From the NCBI GenBank assembly GCA_963740355.1, contig CAVUDW010000002.1:1792001-1856000 (forward strand): DNA of 64,000 bases. Direction: 5' to 3'. Each line of letters opens with the position of its first letter. Positions within the stretch are counted from its first letter, which is position 1. The notes beneath the pieces were generated by a model. The model saw nothing but the letters and a program-made list of their open reading frames with translations, was not told where the DNA came from and did no database searches. Shown here in pieces: positions 13,917 to 62,295 of the stretch. The DNA comes from an uncultured Gemmatimonadaceae bacterium (GTDB lineage: Bacteria > Gemmatimonadota > Gemmatimonadetes > Gemmatimonadales > Gemmatimonadaceae). Position numbers and translations under genes: made by a program.

Positions 13917-14429
13917 TCACTGTCGCGACTTGATGAACGCCACCAGCTGGTCGAGCGCCGTCCCCCAACCCGTGTGGAATCCCATCGCTTCATGTTGTGC
14001 CCGACCTTCAGGATCGGCGTGCGTCGCAATGGCCGTGTACTTCGTGCCGCTGCCGACCGATTCGAGCTCGATCGAGGCCGTCATCTGCATCTGGCTCCCG
14101 GTCGAGTGTGCGCGCAGCGTGGGCCGAAAGCCCGGGCCGAGCGCGTCGGTCCAGACCACGCGCGTTTCTGGCACCACCTCCAGATAGCAGCCCGCGTTCG
14201 GATATTCCTCGCCTTCGGGCGACACCATCGTGGTGAAGAACTCTCCACCCGGGCGCAGGTCGATACGGCAGGCGTTCACGCTCCACGGCTTGGGGCAGAA
14301 CCATGGCATCAGCAATTCCGGCGTCGTCCACGCGGCCCACACGAGGCTCTTGGGGACATCGATCACGCGCTCCAGCACCAGGTCGAGCGCTGGGTTCACG
14401 ACGATGGGCGAGCGAGCAGTCATTTCCAT
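13917..14429 (-). CDS. SRPBCC (AHA1/YndB-like) family protein
   Basis: [45 protein letters not shown]. Confidence 0.9.
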
Positions 14430-14538: not shown

Positions 14539-15345
14539 GTGTCGCGCCGCGGCGCACCGAGCGAGCTTTCGCGCGTGACCACTGCCTCGTCGGGCTCGCT
14601 GACACACTTTGCGCTGGAAACCCTGGCGTACTTCGTCGCGGCTCGCTGGTACTGGCGCGCTGCTCGGGTGGGACCACAGCCGCCGCCGCGCGACCGCTTC
14701 CTTCTCCTCGCGTGCGCCGTGTTCGGGGCAGCACTCGGCAGCAAGCTGCTGCATGTGTTCGAGCACCTGCCGGCGCTGCTCGAGCGGCGCGACATGGCGC
14801 TCTGGCTCGGTGGAAAGTCAGTGCTTGGCGGTTTCCTTGGCGGCACCGTCGGCGTCGAGATCGGCAAGCGGAGCATCGGTTGGCGTCAGGCCACCGGCGA
14901 CACCTGGGTAGTGCCGATCACCCTCGGGCTGCTGATCGGTCGCCTCGGCTGTCAGCTCTCCGGACTCTGGGATCAGACCTACGGCAATCCGACCACGCTG
15001 CCGTGGGGCTGGAATTACGGCGATGGCATTCCGCGGCACCCGGTCGCCGCATACGAAATGTTCGGTGTGATGCTCCTGTATCTCGCAATACGACATCGTT
15101 TCGACCCGTTTCCGGGGGCGCGATTCGCCGCGCTGCTGCTCGGGTACTCGGCGTTGCGCCTCGCCCTCGAGTGCCTCAAGCCTCCGTTTGGTCCACTGGC
15201 GCCCGGCACATTGCCGGTGGCACTCTACGCGGGCCTGACCGCCATTCAGTGGGCCGCGCTCTTCGGTATCGTGTGGTATGGCGTGCTTTTGCGTCGTCGC
15301 CTGACGGTGGTCGAGTCGCCCGCCGCGACACGCGCCGCGTACTGA
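14539..15345 (+). CDS. Prolipoprotein diacylglyceryl transferase (Lgt)-like membrane protein, divergent paralogue
   Basis: About 7 TM helices; IGRLGC..SG, TYG.PT.LPWG, RHPVAAYE, LRLALE motifs. The HGG motif appears as GKSVLGG. Start GTG 14539 or 14575. Confidence 0.8.
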   Translation: MSRRGAPSELSRVTTASSGSLTHFALETLAYFVAARWYWRAARVGPQPPPRDRFLLLACAVFGAALGSKLLHVFEHLPALLERRDMALWLGGKSVLGGFLGGTVGVEIGKRSIGWRQATGDTWVVPITLGLLIGRLGCQLSGLWDQTYGNPTTLPWGWNYGDGIPRHPVAAYEMFGVMLLYLAIRHRFDPFPGARFAALLLGYSALRLALECLKPPFGPLAPGTLPVALYAGLTAIQWAALFGIVWYGVLLRRRLTVVESPAATRAAY

Positions 15346-15365
15346 CTCCTGCTGCCCACCACTGA

Positions 15366-16800
15366 ATGCCGAAGACGCGTCCCTACCTCTACTACGATCA
15401 CGTCGTCAGCCTGTGCGACGAGTGCCTGCGTCGCATCGAGGGGAAGCTCGTCATTCGCGACAACATGGTGTGGATGTACAAGTGGTGTCCGTCGCATGGG
15501 CAGACGAAGGTGCTCGTCGCCTCGGATGCGGCCTTCTGGCGCATGGGGCGCGAGGTCTACATCAAGCCCCCCGAAATGCCGGAGCGGTTCAACACCGAGA
15601 TGGCATGGGGCTGCCCATATGATTGCGGACTCTGTCCGGATCACATGCAGCACTCCTGCCTCACGATTCTCGAGGTCACGGATCACTGCAATCTCTCGTG
15701 CCCGGTGTGTTACGCCGCGAGCGGGCCACATCGCACCGAGCGGCGTGACCTGGCCACGATCGAGAAGATGCTGGATGCCATCGTGGCGAATGAAGGTGAG
15801 CCGGATGTGGTGCAGATCTCCGGTGGTGAGCCGACGACACATCCCGACTTTTTCGCCATTCTCGATGCGGCGAAGCGTCGGCCGATCCGGCACCTGATGC
15901 TGAATACGAATGGGATTCGGATCGCGCAGGAGCCTGGGTTTGCGGAACGCCTGGCTGCGTACGCACCGGGCTTCGAGATCTACCTGCAATTCGATTCATT
16001 GCAGCGTGATGCACTTCATGACCCTGCGCGGTGCGGACCTGCGCAGGATCCGTGAAGAGGCGGTGGCGGCGCTCGATCGCGTCGGTCTGTCCACCACGCT
16101 CGTGATGACGGTCGCGCAGGGCGTGAACGACCAGGAGATCGGCGATGTGATCGAGTGGGCGACGAAACACTCGTGCATCCGCGGCGTGACGCTGCAGCCG
16201 ATCCAGTTCGCTGGACGAATCGATGGGGTGCCGCAACAGACGGCACGCCTCACGCTCACCGAGGTGCGGCAGCGGCTGCTCGACCAATGCCCGATCTTCC
16301 AGCCGGATGATGTGATTCCGGTGCCGTGCAATCCCGATGCGCTGGCGATGGGTTATGCGCTCCGGACACCCGCCGGCATCATGCCGCTGACGCGTTTCAT
16401 TCCTCCCGACGTCCTGCTGGCTGGTGAGCGCAACACCATCGTGTTCGAGCAGGATCCGAATCTCAAGGACCAGGTCTTCCGGCTCTTCGCGACCAATCAC
16501 TCGCCGGAGTCGCAGGCAAAACATCTCGCTTCGCTGCTCTGCTGCCTGCCGAGCATCGACGCGCCGCCGAGTGTGGGCTATGACAGCGTGTTCCGCGTGC
16601 TGATCATGGCGTTCATGGATGCCACGGCGTTCGATGTTCGCGCAATGAAGAAGAGCTGCGTGCACATCGTGCAACCCGATGGCCGGATCATCCCATTCGA
16701 GTCGTACAACCTGTTGTATCGAGACGACCGTCGCGCGATCCTCGACGAACGACGTGCCGAAGTGGATCAACTCTTCCAGCTGCAGCGGAGCCCCGTATGA
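15366..16800 (+). CDS. Radical SAM enzyme, MJ0619/Tes (tetraether synthase)-like; +1 frameshift at about 16014-16017
   Basis: SLCDEC...CPSHG, GCPYDCGLCPDH, CNLSCPVC, SGGEPT, LNTNG, YLQFD in the first frame. Continues as MTLRGADL...LLCCLP...SCVHIVQPDGRIIPF in the next frame (GAT GCA CTT C ATG). Confidence 0.85.
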
Positions 16801-16813
16801 ACGGTCTACCGGC

Positions 16814-17041
16814 ATGAAACGCGTCGTGGTTGGGATCTTGCTGCTGGTTGGCGGCCTGCTTGGCCTGTTCATGTCGGCATGCGGCGCCTTCATCAGCGTG
16901 GCGATGCTCGCGGACCGTGCGAGTCGGCAATACGCGGGTATGCTGATTCTGTCCGTGCCGTGTGCGCTGGTTGGCGTGCTGCTGCTCTGGTTTGTTTGGC
17001 GCCGCTTCAAGAAGTTTCGCGCACCAATCACGAATGGCTGA
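16814..17041 (+). CDS. 75-aa two-helix membrane peptide with lipobox-like Cys
   Basis: MKRVVVGILLLVGGLLGLFMSACGAFISVAML...MLILSVPCALVGVLLLWFVWRRFKK; starts 13 bp after the radical SAM stop; basic N- and C-termini. Confidence 0.65.
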   Translation: MKRVVVGILLLVGGLLGLFMSACGAFISVAMLADRASRQYAGMLILSVPCALVGVLLLWFVWRRFKKFRAPITNG

Positions 17042-17250
17042 TCGAGTTGGGCAAGACCGGGGGGCGCCTGTCAGCGTTTCGTGTGGAGGATCACGGCTTC
17101 GCGCGTCCGTCGAGCTGGACTGATGAGTACAGTCGCATCGTCACTCTGTTCGAGCGGACGATTGGTCCCAACGCATAGAAGGTCAGTGCAAGGAGTCGTT
17201 AAGGACGTGAGTCTACAGCGGATGCACCTGGAGTGTGTGTCGTGAATGCG

Positions 17251-18223
17251 ATGCGCGACCGCGGCGGTCGGCAGTCGCCACTGGCGGGACTGCTGCACGC
17301 CCGAGGGCTGGTGGTGGTTGACGGTGCGCTCGCCACGGAGCTCGAGCGACGGGGAGCGGACCTGCACGACCCACTCTGGTCGGCGCGTGTGCTGCTCGAG
17401 CAGCCGGCGCTCATCCGAGCGGTGCACGATGCCTACTTCGCCGCCGGCGCCGACATCGCGATTTCGGCGACCTATCAGGCCTCGTTCGAGGGGTTCGCGC
17501 GTCGAGGAATGGATGCGAGACGCCGCCGCCGCCTTGATGCGCGAAGCAGTCGCGATCGCCCGGGCCTCCCGCGACGCCTGGTGGGCGGCGCAGTCCCAGA
17601 TCGATGCGCGTCTGCGCCCGCTGGTCGCGGCCAGCGTCGGACCCTACGGCGCCTTCCTCGCCGATGGATCGGAGTACCGAGGCCAGTATGCGCTCACCGA
17701 GGAGCAGCTCGTCGCGTGGCATCGCGCGCGATTCGCGGTACTTGCAAGCAGCGGCGCTGAACTGCTGGCTTGCGAGACCATCCCCTGCGGCGACGAAGCA
17801 CGGGCGCTGGTGCGTTTGCTCGATGAACATCCGGGAGTGAAGGCTTGGATCAGCTTCTCTGCGCGCGATGGCGACGCGGTGGCGAACGGCGAGAGCTTTG
17901 CGGCGCTGGCCGCAGAAATCGGCGCGCATCCCCAGGTCGTTGCGATTGGCATCAACTGCACCGCACCACAGCATGTTGCCTCGCTGGTGCGCTCAGCGCG
18001 TGCCGTGACGTCGACGCCGATTGTCGTCTATCCCAACTCTGGCGAGACGTATGTCGCCGGAGACAAGCGTTGGGAGCCCGGCGCAGTCTGCGCGCCGTTC
18101 GTCGAGTCCGCGAAGCTGTGGGCCGCCGCCGGGGCCACGATCATCGGGGGCTGCTGTCGCACGACGCCAGAGGATGTCGCGGCGTTGCGTGTCTGGGTGG
18201 ACGCTGGCGCGGGCGCGGGGTGA
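17251..18223 (+). CDS. mmuM: Homocysteine S-methyltransferase; +1 frameshift at about 17514-17520
   Basis: VVDGALATELE..G.DLHDPLWSA, AYFAAGAD, TYQAS in the first frame; AASVGPYGAFLADGSEYRG, LACETIP, GINC, VYPNSGE, IGGCC in the next frame. Confidence 0.88.
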
Positions 18224-34461: not shown

Positions 34462-34520
34462 GCCGGAGGGCTTTCTTGCGCGAGGGCCAGGTCGTTCACC
34501 ACTCGCGCCGGACAGTGATC

Positions 34521-36045
34521 ATGCCACGACAGAATCAGAAGACTCAGTGTCAGTCCGCTCCGCACACCGCGCTGCGGACTTTCGCCGCTGGATGTGCGTT
34601 GCTTCCCTCCGTCTTGCTGGCGCAGGGCGGGCCGCCTCCGGGCGGCGCACCACGCGAGTCCGGACCGCCGCCGATGGCGCAGGCAGAGCTGGTGCAAAAG
34701 GTTCGCACACTCGCAGAAGCACTTACCCGCCAGGATCGGTTTTCCGGTGTGATCCTGCTTGCGCAGAACGGCAGCAAGGTTTTCGAGCAGGCCTACGGCG
34801 TTGCCGATCGTGAATCGAAGAAGCCGATGACGGTCGGCACCATCTTCAACGTCAGTTCGGTCGGCAAGCTCTTCACGCAGATCGCGATCGGGCAATTGGC
34901 GGCCGCGGGCAAGCTGTCGCTCGATAGCACCATTGCCACCTACTGGCCGGACTACCCGGATCCTGTGGCTGCGCGCAAGGTCACCATCCGGCAGCTGCTG
35001 TCGCATCGATCGGGGATCAACGGCAACATCTTCGTCACGCCGCTCACGATACGGAGCAATCACGACAACGTCCCCGCCGCCACGCGCGAGCCCCTCGCGT
35101 TCGAGCCCGGCACACGACAGCAGTATTCGAACGCGGGCTATGTGGTGCTGGGCGAAATCGTGGAACGACTCTCGCACGAGGTTTATCACGAGTACGTCCG
35201 CAAACATGTCTTCGCGGCTGCGGGCATGACTGCCAGCGATTTCCCGGCGCTCGACTCGTTGCCAGGGAATGCTGCACTCGGATACACATGGGGCCTCGAT
35301 GAAGATGCGCCGCCACCAGCCGTTCTGCCGCCGCTGACGCGTAGCGCACCACTGCAGCCGCGGCGGGGCAGTGCCGCGGGCGGTGCGTATTCGAACGTGA
35401 ATGACCTGTTTCGATTCGTGATGGCGCGCCGGAATGGAACGCTCGGCGTACCGGCACGCCGCAGTCAGGAGATGGCGGCCGGTGGCAGTCCTGGTTCCAA
35501 TGCGATGGTCGCAGAAGGGTTGCCGGGCGGCTACGACGTGATCGTGCTCTCGAACTTCGATCCGCCAACCGCTGGCGCCATTGCAGACTCGGTCGAGCAA
35601 TGGCTGGGTGGAGGCCGCCGCGGGCCCGGCGATGTCCGCGTCGGTGGACCGCGCATCGTCTTGCGTGCGCCGGGAGCAGGGCGATGAGCCGCCACCGGCC
35701 GGACCGCAGGGGCCGCTGCAAAAGTCCTTTCCCGACTCGCCGCAGGGCCGCGTTGCCGCCGCCTACCTGAAGGCGTTCTCGTCGGGTGATGCGGCTACCA
35801 TGCGCACCTTCATCGAAGCGCAGATGACGCCGGGTGAGCGGAGCCTCGATGATCGGGTCCGCAGATATCAGGAAATCTTCGCTGACAACGGAGTCCTTAC
35901 CTTGCTCGGCGTGCGTGTCGCTCCGGACTCGTCATTGGCGATCCAGGTGAACTCGGCGCAGAATGGCGAAATGACGCTGCTGATGTCGTTCGAACCCGCT
36001 GCGCCGTTCCGGATCACCGGGCTACAATTCCGCCTCGAGCGCTGA
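34521..36045 (+). CDS. Exported beta-lactamase-family serine hydrolase with C-terminal extra domain; probable +1 frameshift at about 35678-35682
   Basis: SSVGK, LLSHRSG, YSN motifs; GCA GGG C GAT GAG would join the ORF ending at 35687 to the frame ending at 36045 (FPDSPQGRVAAAYLKAFSSGD...PFRITGL). Confidence 0.8.
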
Positions 36046-60306: not shown

Positions 60307-60444
60307 GAGTGCGGCCGCAGTACAGGGTGAAGGGGCGCTGGGGGCTGTCGGGAAACATATCGTGCCGACGCTGGCGTTCGTACGGCTTTGCTGCGATTCT
60401 GCCTCTGTCCCAGTCGTTGTGACAGCCCCCTCTGGAGCCCGACC

Positions 60445-62295
60445 TTGCCGACGCCCGAAGAATTGCTCGACCAGCTGCACCGTGATCTCGAAGTGCACGA
60501 TCATGACGAGGAGGCTACCGGCATCGATCGACGCCAGTTCATGTTCTATTCGCTGGTGACGGCGGCGGCGACGACGTTCGGGGCGAGTGCCGCGCAGGCG
60601 CAGCGGGCGCTGGCGGCCGGCGGGGCAACGCGCTTCGCATCCGCCAGCGGCCGGTCGCTGATCGATCAGGCGCAACAGGCAGTCGCCACGCTGGGCAATG
60701 GCGAGGCACCCGCGCTGCAATTCATGCCGTATCCCGGCGGTACCGGTGCGCTGATGGAAAAGTTGGCCCGCGAACGCGGACGCACGGCCTTCGACCGCGC
60801 CGTGTTCACGGTGCCGAAGTTCACCGGGGCCGTGCCGACGAACCCGGACGATATCGCCTTCCTCCCGGCGCATCGTCTTGCGTCGATGATTCGCGAGCGG
60901 AAGATCACGTCGGTGGCGCTGACGGAGATCTACCTCGCGCGTCTCAAGCGGCTCAATCCCACGTTGCTGTGTGCGGTCACGGTGATGGAGGAGTCTGCGC
61001 GTCGAGAAGCGGCGCAGGCCGACGCCGAGCTCAAGGCCGGCAAGTATCGTGGGCCGCTGCACGGCTTGCCGTACGGCGTGAAGGATCTCTTCAACACCAA
61101 GGGCATTCCGACGACATGGGGTGCGGCGGATTTTCAGGACCGCATCATCGACGAGGACGCGGAAGTGGTCGTGCGCCTGCGCAATGCGGGCGCCGTATTG
61201 ATCGCGAAACTGTCGACCGGACTGTTCGCGCAGAACGATCAGTGGTTCCGCGGCCGCACCAACAATCCCTGGAACCTGGTGCAGGGGTCGAGTGGATCGT
61301 CCGCTGGCCCGGCGTCGGCCACGGCGGCTGGCTGTGTCGCCTTCAGCATCGGCACCGAGACGCAGGGATCGATCGTGTCGCCGGCGGTCCGCTGTGGCGT
61401 GAGCGCGTTGCGGCCGACGTTCGGGCGCGTGAGCCGACAGGGCGGCATGGTGCTGGCCTGGTCACAGGATCGCGTGGGCCCGATTTGTCGGACAGTCGAA
61501 GACTGCGCGATGGTGTTCAACGTGATCCATGGTGTCGATGAAAAGGACCCCTCCACAATCACCACGCCGTTCCAGTTCGACCGCAACATCGCGCTGCCGT
61601 CGCTCCGCATTGGCGTCGATCCGAACGCACCGAAGGAGTTCGTCGACAAGCTGAAGGAACTCGGCATGGTGCCCAAGGTCATTGGTGCACGCCCGACAGT
61701 GGCCGGCATGGCTGGCGGTGGCCTGAATGTCGAATACGCGGCCGCCTTCGACTCGTACGTCCAGCGGAAGGCAAAGGAGATCGGTCTCGACCTGAACGCC
61801 TTGCCGGAGCCGCCACGCCCCGGCACTACACCGACGCCCGCGCCGGCACCCGTGACGACGCCGCAGCCGCCCACCAATCCGATGGCGCCGGCCGATTGGA
61901 ATCCGCGTTTTGTGCAGGGACGCACCGTGCGCGCGTTCGAGTTCCTGCAGAATCAGCGTCGCCGCTACATGCTGGTGTCGGCGTGGGGCGAGTTCATGAA
62001 GGATCTGGACATGTTCATCGGCAATCCCTTTGCGGATGTCGCACCGAATGCACAGACAGGCCACCCATGCGTGGTGGTGCCATACAAGATGGATGTGCCG
62101 GTGGTGCAGGGAGGCGGCGGTGGCGCCGCGGCTGCACGACCAGCGGGGGCACCAGCCACTCCACCGGTCGAGCTCAAGCCGCAGCCGATCTGTGGCGTGA
62201 TCGTCGGTGCGCTCTACAACGACGACAAGATCCTGTCGGTGGCACACCAGTTCCAGACGCATACCGACGTGCACACCAAGCGGCCGTCGATGTAA
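60445..62295 (+). CDS. Amidase-signature family enzyme with Tat-like leader
   Basis: DRRQFMF; GPLHGLPYGVKD, GSSGSSAG, GTETQGSIVSP; TTG start with upstream GGAG inferred. Confidence 0.9.
   Translation: MPTPEELLDQLHRDLEVHDHDEEATGIDRRQFMFYSLVTAAATTFGASAAQAQRALAAGGATRFASASGRSLIDQAQQAVATLGNGEAPALQFMPYPGGTGALMEKLARERGRTAFDRAVFTVPKFTGAVPTNPDDIAFLPAHRLASMIRERKITSVALTEIYLARLKRLNPTLLCAVTVMEESARREAAQADAELKAGKYRGPLHGLPYGVKDLFNTKGIPTTWGAADFQDRIIDEDAEVVVRLRNAGAVLIAKLSTGLFAQNDQWFRGRTNNPWNLVQGSSGSSAGPASATAAGCVAFSIGTETQGSIVSPAVRCGVSALRPTFGRVSRQGGMVLAWSQDRVGPICRTVEDCAMVFNVIHGVDEKDPSTITTPFQFDRNIALPSLRIGVDPNAPKEFVDKLKELGMVPKVIGARPTVAGMAGGGLNVEYAAAFDSYVQRKAKEIGLDLNALPEPPRPGTTPTPAPAPVTTPQPPTNPMAPADWNPRFVQGRTVRAFEFLQNQRRRYMLVSAWGEFMKDLDMFIGNPFADVAPNAQTGHPCVVVPYKMDVPVVQGGGGGAAAARPAGAPATPPVELKPQPICGVIVGALYNDDKILSVAHQFQTHTDVHTKRPSM

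Follow-up and report, generated by a model that had tools for sequence, protein, structure and literature searches.

Positions 14539–17041 of the DNA studied here, a 64,000-nucleotide stretch from an uncultured Gemmatimonadaceae bacterium (the window; contig CAVUDW010000002.1 of GCA_963740355.1, an assembly of 5.45 Mb in 5 contigs), hold a copy of a widespread three-component membrane cassette. Its components are LgtL, a paralog of the prolipoprotein diacylglyceryl transferase Lgt; a radical SAM (S-adenosylmethionine) protein resembling the archaeal lipid-coupling enzyme GDGT-MAS/Tes; and one or more small membrane proteins, here called microproteins, with a conserved Cys. We show co-inheritance of these components across phyla. 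As far as searched, the cassette is undescribed; it is real and widespread, and its parts come from known superfamilies and fall outside the membership cut-offs for Lgt, Tes, and TrsS.

In the window, the three genes lie on the same strand in the order LgtL, radical SAM gene, small membrane open reading frame (ORF), and are separated by gaps of 20 nt (15346–15365) and 13 nt (16801–16813). A gene on the minus strand 5′ of the cassette (13917–14429) runs divergently and scored 108.7 bits on the SRPBCC-type domain AHSA1 of Pfam. The earlier note on this DNA had described this same arrangement from the sequence, and the ORF list and Pfam agree with it. A search at the cassette gave no terminator-like site; two promoter-like sites were predicted, inside the radical SAM gene and on the minus strand, and were not used as evidence.

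The Cassette Is Inherited Together across Phyla

Within the genus, a close ortholog of the radical SAM gene was present in 9 of 19 other genomes, and two carried a 35%-identical paralog. Of the 9 ortholog loci, 8 had LgtL directly upstream of the radical SAM gene, and it was upstream in both paralog loci as well, the ninth ortholog locus being a 2.9-kb contig that ends within the radical SAM gene. Twenty-one genomes from elsewhere in the family or order, outside the genus, yielded nothing beyond a generic radical SAM match. A wider survey with one genome per species confirmed at least 589 relatives among 600 pattern matches, and the best 80 of these at least 589 relatives (57–97% identity) provided the wider loci analyzed below. 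They span Gemmatimonadota, Pseudomonadota, Acidobacteriota, Bacteroidota, Planctomycetota, Myxococcota, Eisenbacteria, and one archaeal metagenome-assembled genome (MAG).

By tblastn, LgtL was found within 5 kb of the radical SAM gene in 72 of the 80 loci: directly upstream in 52, upstream across a gap of 60–1500 nt in 19, and downstream in 1. (Greedy ORF clustering, which preferred antisense ORFs, recovered LgtL in only 46 loci, and the tblastn count was used instead.) Among the eight loci without LgtL, three had less than 320 nt of upstream flank and five were well flanked; an LgtL profile search of these five loci gave no match, and two of the five genomes carried LgtL elsewhere (275 and 244 bits). 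Identities of LgtL and of the radical SAM protein to the reference rose together (Spearman rho 0.62, n = 72), a value that is descriptive only, the loci being related and a P value not meaningful. Clustering of all ORFs in the 80 loci gave no third family common to more than eight of them. A search for longer fused forms returned two proteins, neither fused to Lgt, and none of the 120 matches listed was an Lgt/radical SAM fusion of ~730 aa. The earlier note had staked its proposal on the three genes staying together in other genomes, and they do so across at least six phyla, with LgtL in 72/80 loci and a Cys microprotein in 64/80, counts well above what chance would produce.

When 151 genomes of the phylum were sampled, the close radical SAM family was found in the source genome and in one other, which also has an adjacent LgtL. 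In a quick tree, the Gemmatimonadaceae radical SAM sequences fell among those of Burkholderiales and other proteobacteria. This placement, together with the rarity of the family in the phylum, points to acquisition of the Gemmatimonadaceae cassette by transfer.

LgtL, an Altered Lgt Paralog

LgtL (14539–15345, + strand) is 268 aa long when read from GTG 14539 and 256 aa from the alternative GTG 14575, which is the start of its orthologs. It matched the Pfam LGT family (PF01790) with 73.1 bits against a gathering score of 24.9 (72.7 bits in the genome search), and fell under all NCBIfam Lgt cut-offs, with 22.7 versus 118.9 bits for TIGR00544. A single-sequence PDB search with LgtL gave no match; a profile built from 46 LgtL sequences matched Escherichia coli Lgt (5AZB) at E 1.1e-13, and hhalign aligned LgtL with the genome's own canonical Lgt at a probability of 98.7%. 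The AlphaFold 2 (AF2) model of LgtL had a predicted local distance difference test (pLDDT) score of 91.4, and its only Foldseek match at E ≤ 0.001 was again 5AZB (E 1.2e-5, probability 1.00, TM 0.53); AF2 and Foldseek together thus returned the seven-helix Lgt fold. As in Lgt, the topology is inferred to be N-out and C-in, which fits the helix layout and the Arg/Lys-rich loops of the model.

LgtL is a second copy. The canonical Lgt of this genome is encoded on another contig (G000:C3:1345044-1345790; L119:1474-2310), has 278 aa and 226 bits on PF01790, and retains the H-G, G-R-I-G-N-F-I-N, and Y/R/E motifs intact. In contrast to it, LgtL is tied to a radical SAM gene and carries a family-invariant G-R-x-G-C motif, with R135 invariant and C138 present in 46/46 sequences. 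Compared with E. coli Lgt, LgtL keeps G142, R143 (its R135), and G145, the invariant Y235 and R239 (Y203 and R207), E243 (E211, Asp or Glu in the family consensus), and the RHPxQLYE stretch. Replaced are Y26, by a nearly invariant His (H23); Y30, by Glu; H103 of the H-G-G-L motif, by a hydrophobic residue (L96); and N146, by Cys in 46/46 sequences; E151 has no conserved counterpart in register. The register of the first transmembrane helix has low sequence identity, but two methods agree on it. The Lgt signature G142-R-L-G-N-F-I-N-G-E-L-W-G154, as given in the available text of PMC4728403, is therefore only partly present in LgtL, with R143 kept and N146 and E151 lost.

According to the same available text (PMC4728403), E. 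coli Lgt mutants at R143, Y26, H103, and E151 are inactive, E151 binds the head group of phosphatidylglycerol, Y26 contacts the sn-2 ester, and peptide binding has been proposed for the HGGL region. Judged from the alignment, LgtL keeps the core of the site, and the residues it has changed are precisely those linked to reading of the donor head group and to acceptor binding. Because residues needed by E. coli Lgt are replaced, LgtL may use another donor or acceptor, or other chemistry. The earlier note had called the gene product an Lgt-like transferase, which stands with regard to fold (shared with 5AZB/5AZC) and family (PF01790); it is not an ordinary Lgt, given the replacement of Y26, H103, N146, and E151.

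The Radical SAM Protein, a Relative of Tes in a Separate Clade

The radical SAM gene of the window is read in two parts on the + strand. Its N-terminal part (15366–16016), in the frame of ATG 15366 (ORF 15366–16055), matched Pfam Zn_ribbon_HMPTM (60.8 bits) and Radical_SAM (63.7 bits), carries a rubredoxin-like Cys/His site and two CX3CX2C sites, one N-terminal and one of the radical SAM type, and is 90–95% identical to intact same-genus orthologs. The C-terminal part (16018–16800), in the +1 frame (ORF 15910–16800), is 85–90% identical to orthologs and holds the family-invariant Cys that correspond to C321, C392, C393, and C431 of the intact ortholog. The best NCBIfam models for the gene were TrsS, on which the halves scored 204.5 and 102.8 bits, and Tes, with 155.7 and 93.9 bits, all under the cut-offs.

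An intact ortholog matched GDGT-MAS (Methanocaldococcus jannaschii MJ0619; 7TOL/7TOM) in 7TOL at E 7.5e-60, and the family profile did so at E 2.6e-81 over nearly full length. The homology is thus full length, and three of the four Tes metal sites are in register. These comprise a rubredoxin-type C-X2-C-X20-C-X2-H site (C17, C20, C41, H44), an N-terminal CX3CX2C cluster with His (C83, C87, C90, H93/H96), and the radical SAM CX3CX2C cluster (C108, C112, C115), all invariant in 79 family sequences and also kept in 12–13 of 13 archaeal Tes. The ligand identities for the matching GDGT-MAS sites are those in the accessible part of PMC9433317.

The fourth, C-terminal site differs. We aligned 13 archaeal Tes above the NCBIfam cut-off with 26 family members; the C-terminal Cys ligands of Tes are not named in the accessible part of PMC9433317, and the comparison rests on conserved alignment columns. 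In archaeal Tes, three C-terminal Cys are invariant (13/13), together with Met439 and His columns. At these Cys columns the family has a variable residue (Ala), Ser (with an invariant Cys one column on), and Asp/Glu, and it has invariant C-terminal Cys of its own, C321, C392, C393, and C431. A counterpart of Met439 is present in the intact ortholog and in 16 of the 26 family members, and Tyr459 is Ile in the ortholog. The site where Tes stores the substrate radical as a C–S bond thus looks rewired, and other ligands could hold a cluster there. For the ortholog, the AF2 model was poor (pLDDT 61.8 from 11 sequences) and was used neither for a fold search nor for cluster geometry.

On NCBIfam, the best model for the intact ortholog was TrsS (NF045646), which aligned at positions 3–435 of 441 with 317.5 bits against a cut-off of 490; Tes (NF045702) gave 255.1 bits against 450. 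A quick tree placed the 26 rows of the family and the 13 of Tes each on one side of a branch, with supports of 98 and 99 and branch lengths of 1.77 and 3.17. As judged from these sequences, the radical SAM protein is related to Tes, belongs to a separate clade, and is not itself a Tes. The earlier note's description of a Tes-like enzyme is therefore upheld by the homology to GDGT-MAS and by the three metal sites, and membership in Tes is not. Compared with Tes, the family is bacterial, forms a long-branch clade, and is coupled to LgtL in 72 of the 80 loci compared. As to TrsS, a radical SAM (seleno)protein that appears only in a table in the available portion of the review PMC13188914, the family stays under its cut-off, and the break in the window is not an in-frame TGA. 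Mss of Thermotoga and Thermoanaerobacter, a bacterial synthase of membrane-spanning lipids, is likewise a radical SAM enzyme and joins lipid tails (PMC13159169 and PMC13274423, in their available parts); its organisms have no Tes homolog, according to the authors in the available part of PMC13159169.

Microproteins with a Single Conserved Cysteine

The small membrane ORF of the window (16814–17041, + strand; translated from ATG 16814) encodes 75 aa with two hydrophobic spans, and its Cys23 (16880–16882) follows an N-terminal Lys-Arg and a 19-residue hydrophobic stretch. By sequence similarity it was found only in close relatives, and it holds the same position in the same-genus loci. In a 14-sequence alignment of its group, only G14, L18, C23, and G24 are invariant. 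Microproteins in the 80 wider loci were defined by layout, as same-strand ORFs of 45–170 aa in which a Cys follows 13 uncharged residues with a mean hydropathy of ≥1.6 and a Lys or Arg lies 14–28 residues before the Cys; the basic-then-hydrophobic layout is therefore present by construction. (This definition replaced a stricter earlier screen, which gave 35/80 loci and missed obvious cases.)

In the cassette zone, ORFs with this Cys motif were found in 64 of the 80 loci, with 84 hits at a density of 0.79 per kb, compared with 0.019 per kb on the opposite strand of the same zone and 0.029 per kb in the rest of the loci. This enrichment of ~30-fold over background bears out the co-conserved small Cys-containing membrane ORF that the earlier note had envisaged. 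The motif ORFs occurred in 63 of the 72 loci with LgtL and in 1 of the 8 without, and that one has a truncated flank. In 34 loci they lay 3′ of the radical SAM gene, in 15 they fell between the genes of the two enzymes, and in 15 they were 5′ of LgtL, with up to four in tandem. In roughly half of the loci the radical SAM gene is followed directly by a small membrane ORF, and the two often overlap by 4 nt; in Acidobacteriota, one to four small ORFs in tandem separate LgtL from the radical SAM gene, and in Comamonadaceae and others the small ORFs are upstream of LgtL.

The residues around the Cys of the 84 motifs were most often Gly at −2 (41), Leu (36), Ala (16), or Ile (8) at −1, and Gly at +1 (40). 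The canonical lipobox, [LVI][ASTVI][GAS]C in the available part of PMC12462473, fits only 8/84 motifs, with Gly, Ala, or Ser at −1 in 24/84, and the window motif, M-S-A-C, departs from it at −3. The lipobox Cys of the earlier note therefore did not hold up. In contrast to Lgt, the presumed acceptor motif of LgtL is mostly G-L-C-G; the likeness to Lgt acceptors lies in a Cys that ends a membrane span on its outer side, with basic residues ahead of the span. The microprotein Cys, one span after the basic stretch, is inferred to lie on the face where an Lgt-type site works, if LgtL has the E. coli Lgt topology. A complex prediction for LgtL with the small protein scored 0.00, without controls, and speaks neither for nor against binding.

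The microproteins matched no Pfam or NCBIfam family above cut-off, and a protein atlas search with the small protein returned unnamed clusters only. An iterated hidden Markov model (HMM) built from acidobacterial microproteins covered 14 loci and did not reach the window ORF. The iterated HMM did not join all groups, and the microproteins may not all be of common descent; what they have in common is the layout and the Cys, which is the sole conserved feature of a very divergent set.

The Window Copy Carries a Frame Break

In the window, the radical SAM gene is interrupted by one extra base within positions 16014–16017 (+ strand). In the DNA alignment this base is absent from 8/8 same-genus orthologs; the site is not a homopolymer. 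The two ORFs abut on the TrsS model, at positions 3–202 and then 203–436, and seven same-genus orthologs have single open frames of 478–515 aa in which the halves are contiguous. LgtL and the small ORF are both intact in the window. With this one-base insertion, the cassette of this genome is either inactive through local decay or mis-assembled at the break.

Several other accounts of the break were considered. Programmed frameshifting is ruled out by the absence of the extra base from 8/8 orthologs, and selenocysteine read-through is ruled out because the break is a frame change rather than an in-frame TGA. Both rpoB and rpoC read as uninterrupted frames, which makes widespread indels in the assembly unlikely, and the break may be a local error. 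Among the public sequencing runs listed, none was of RNA, the best word shares were 0.20, 0.15, and 0.13, and the contigs neither bridged the frameshift site nor reached the small ORF.

Broken cassette genes are not unique to the window, because LgtL is in two pieces in two other genomes, in different frames at L033:1907-2643 (genome G002) and as two separate matches at G045:C35:161374-162104. Next to the cassette, a homocysteine S-methyltransferase gene (17233–18223, + strand) is also split over two frames: on Pfam S-methyl_trans, the ORF at 17233–17760 covers positions 1–70 and the ORF at 17246–18223 covers positions 63–280, with the break near 17504–17523. Its ortholog in genome G005 is one frame. 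We rejected this gene as a cassette member, as it is a neighbor only within the genus and in 1/80 wider loci. Elsewhere in the window, ORFs at 34476–36042 (+), 60388–62292 (+), and 1195–2631 (−) gave partial Pfam matches, to Beta-lactamase (positions 4–252 of 329, with an overlapping ORF), Amidase (2–247 of 445), and NMO (133–246 of 331), and may represent frame breaks or divergent ends.

Proposed Function and Alternative Explanations

For the function of the cassette we tentatively propose, with a confidence somewhat short of even, that LgtL lipidates the microprotein Cys and that the radical SAM enzyme remodels lipid tails. LgtL, with its Lgt fold and a site that would face the periplasm if it has the E. 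coli Lgt topology, would move a glyceride-type lipid onto the microprotein Cys, at the outer end of a transmembrane span. Signal peptidase II cleavage depends on lipobox position −1, and the microprotein would probably stay uncleaved because the residue before its Cys is usually bulky (Leu or Ile). The cytoplasmic Tes-like enzyme would carry out radical chemistry on the ends of lipid tails, acting either on the donor before transfer or on the attached lipid afterward; if it acts on the donor, this would also account for the changes in LgtL at residues that read the donor. The expected product is a microprotein with a tail-linked lipid, macrocyclic or membrane-spanning. The full version of this idea, a new protein lipidation in which a dedicated Lgt paralog attaches a tail-linked lipid made by the radical SAM enzyme to an internal Cys of an uncleaved microprotein, we consider doubtful.

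Several observations weigh against the proposed lipidation and tail remodeling. LgtL is without the Y26, H103, and E151 that E. coli Lgt needs, and few of the microprotein motifs are canonical lipoboxes. The Tes-invariant C-terminal Cys are not kept in register in the radical SAM protein, which leaves it uncertain that coupling of the Tes type can take place on that cluster. The topology is also awkward, with the Cys and the LgtL site periplasmic and the radical SAM enzyme cytoplasmic. At the level of loci, 16/80 have no microprotein by our definition, three genomes have the radical SAM gene without LgtL, and the radical SAM gene of the window itself is frameshifted.

A different reading is that the cassette serves a bulk membrane-lipid pathway, in which the Tes-like enzyme couples the acyl or alkyl tails of phospholipids to give iso-diabolic acid or membrane-spanning lipids of the brGDGT type (branched glycerol dialkyl glycerol tetraethers), LgtL re-heads or transfers the products, and the microproteins are accessory or anchoring subunits rather than substrates. 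We think this unlikely. In its favor, the radical SAM protein shares homology with GDGT-MAS, Acidobacteriota are among the carriers (including the Bryobacterales loci L081, L083, and L089–L091), some lineages have acyltransferase and AMP-binding neighbors, and bacterial Tes homologs have been proposed for brGDGT synthesis (PMC8941075 and PMC10087280, in their available parts). However, of 14 acidobacteria producing iso-diabolic acid, only 3 have a Tes homolog, by the available part of PMC13159169, and such a pathway would leave unexplained why a single microprotein Cys is conserved where an Lgt site acts. Many of the carriers, moreover, are Burkholderiales, Xanthomonadales, and Flavobacteriia, for which we know of no reports of membrane-spanning lipids.

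The one to four tandem small ORFs, hypervariable outside a short motif, also resemble precursor peptides, and a radical SAM enzyme beside small ORFs is typical of systems that make RiPPs (peptides synthesized by the ribosome and modified after translation). In a maturation of this kind, the radical SAM enzyme would modify the Cys of a small precursor, or its neighbors, directly, and LgtL would lipidate or scaffold. We regard this as improbable, given that the enzyme is Tes-like with no peptide maturase above cut-off among its 25 best-listed NCBIfam matches, that ORF clustering over the 80 loci gave no protease or exporter conserved nearby, and that the microproteins are integral membrane proteins whose Cys, judging by their basic-then-hydrophobic layout, would be on the side opposite the cytoplasmic enzyme. 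Very improbable is the view that nothing special is encoded here, with LgtL a redundant Lgt isozyme, the small ORF present by chance, the adjacency accidental, and the region decaying. The frameshifts in the radical SAM and homocysteine S-methyltransferase genes of the window and the split LgtL of genomes G002 (L033) and G045 would fit such decay, but at the level of the family this view is contradicted by the synteny (72/80 and 64/80 loci) and the ~30-fold motif enrichment, and it also faces the joint rise of LgtL and radical SAM identities (rho 0.62) and an LgtL that has invariant residues of its own (C138, 46/46) alongside a canonical Lgt elsewhere in the genome.

Lineage-Specific Neighbors and Related Loci

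In eight Comamonadaceae-type loci (L074:1830-4001, L053, L060, L061, L063, L085, L088, and L112), a 724-aa fusion of a major facilitator superfamily (MFS) transporter with an acyltransferase lies ~1 kb upstream of the radical SAM gene and recalls lysophospholipid transporter/re-acylation systems. In two Thermoanaerobaculia loci (L084:6455-8266 and L098:6410-8239), an AMP-binding, acyl-activating enzyme is encoded directly downstream of the radical SAM gene, and a 923-aa protein from Thermoleophilia (P0122) combines a radical SAM domain of Tes-like type with an AMP-binding domain in one fusion. The acyltransferase and AMP-binding neighbors lend these lineages a faint lipid flavor.

The two same-genus genomes with a paralog (G003 and G014) carry a distant second cassette, at L037:4821-7644 (− strand) and L038. 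Its radical SAM protein has 529 aa and ~35% identity, its LgtL is ~36% identical and also has G-R-x-G-C, and an 80-aa membrane ORF overlaps the radical SAM stop. In the alignment, this distant radical SAM paralog keeps the Tes-type C-terminal Cys columns and is missing the N-terminal cluster Cys.

The archaeal locus, L104 in a Halobacteriales MAG (G185), has LgtL and the radical SAM gene adjacent on a 92.8-kb contig. Among 61 genomes of its phylum, true Tes above cut-off was found in 32, and the best match of G185 reached only 225 bits. Other Gemmatimonadota families have a different Tes-like clade, found in 12/13, 3/3, and 3/3 sampled genomes (e.g., G061:C464:1768-2700 and G046:C18:43924-44853). 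Its open frames of 540–640 aa scored ~200–228 bits on the family profile and aligned only at positions 11–322, and no strong LgtL match lay on the same contig among the matches listed.

Significance for Bacterial Lipids and Protein Lipidation

A search of open-access papers and bioRxiv, without supplements, found no literature that links diacylglyceryl transferase with both tetraethers and radical SAM, or Lgt with tetraether synthase, and the terms "Lgt" and "lipoprotein" are absent from the available part of a 2026 review of lipid-modifying radical SAM enzymes (PMC13459092). Bench tests are within reach, since the cassette is carried by cultured strains: Oleiagrimonas soli, Paracidobacterium acidisoli, Aquimarina spp., Pelomonas/Roseateles spp., Uliginosibacterium paludis, and Parachitinimonas caeni.

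The brGDGTs underlie widely used paleotemperature and pH proxies, and bacterial Tes homologs, the proposed makers of these lipids, serve to identify which organisms in genomes and metagenomes produce them (PMC8941075 and PMC10087280, in their available parts). A large clade of bacterial Tes homologs locked to an altered Lgt and to Cys microproteins is a concrete, testable alternative to brGDGT synthesis, and warns against taking every Tes homolog as a brGDGT marker. If the lipidation proposal is true, the bacterial "Tes homologs" of this clade would not be brGDGT synthases at all, a protein would be joined by a covalent bond to a lipid spanning or bridging the bilayer, and the cassette would constitute a second, substrate-dedicated branch of bacterial protein lipidation.

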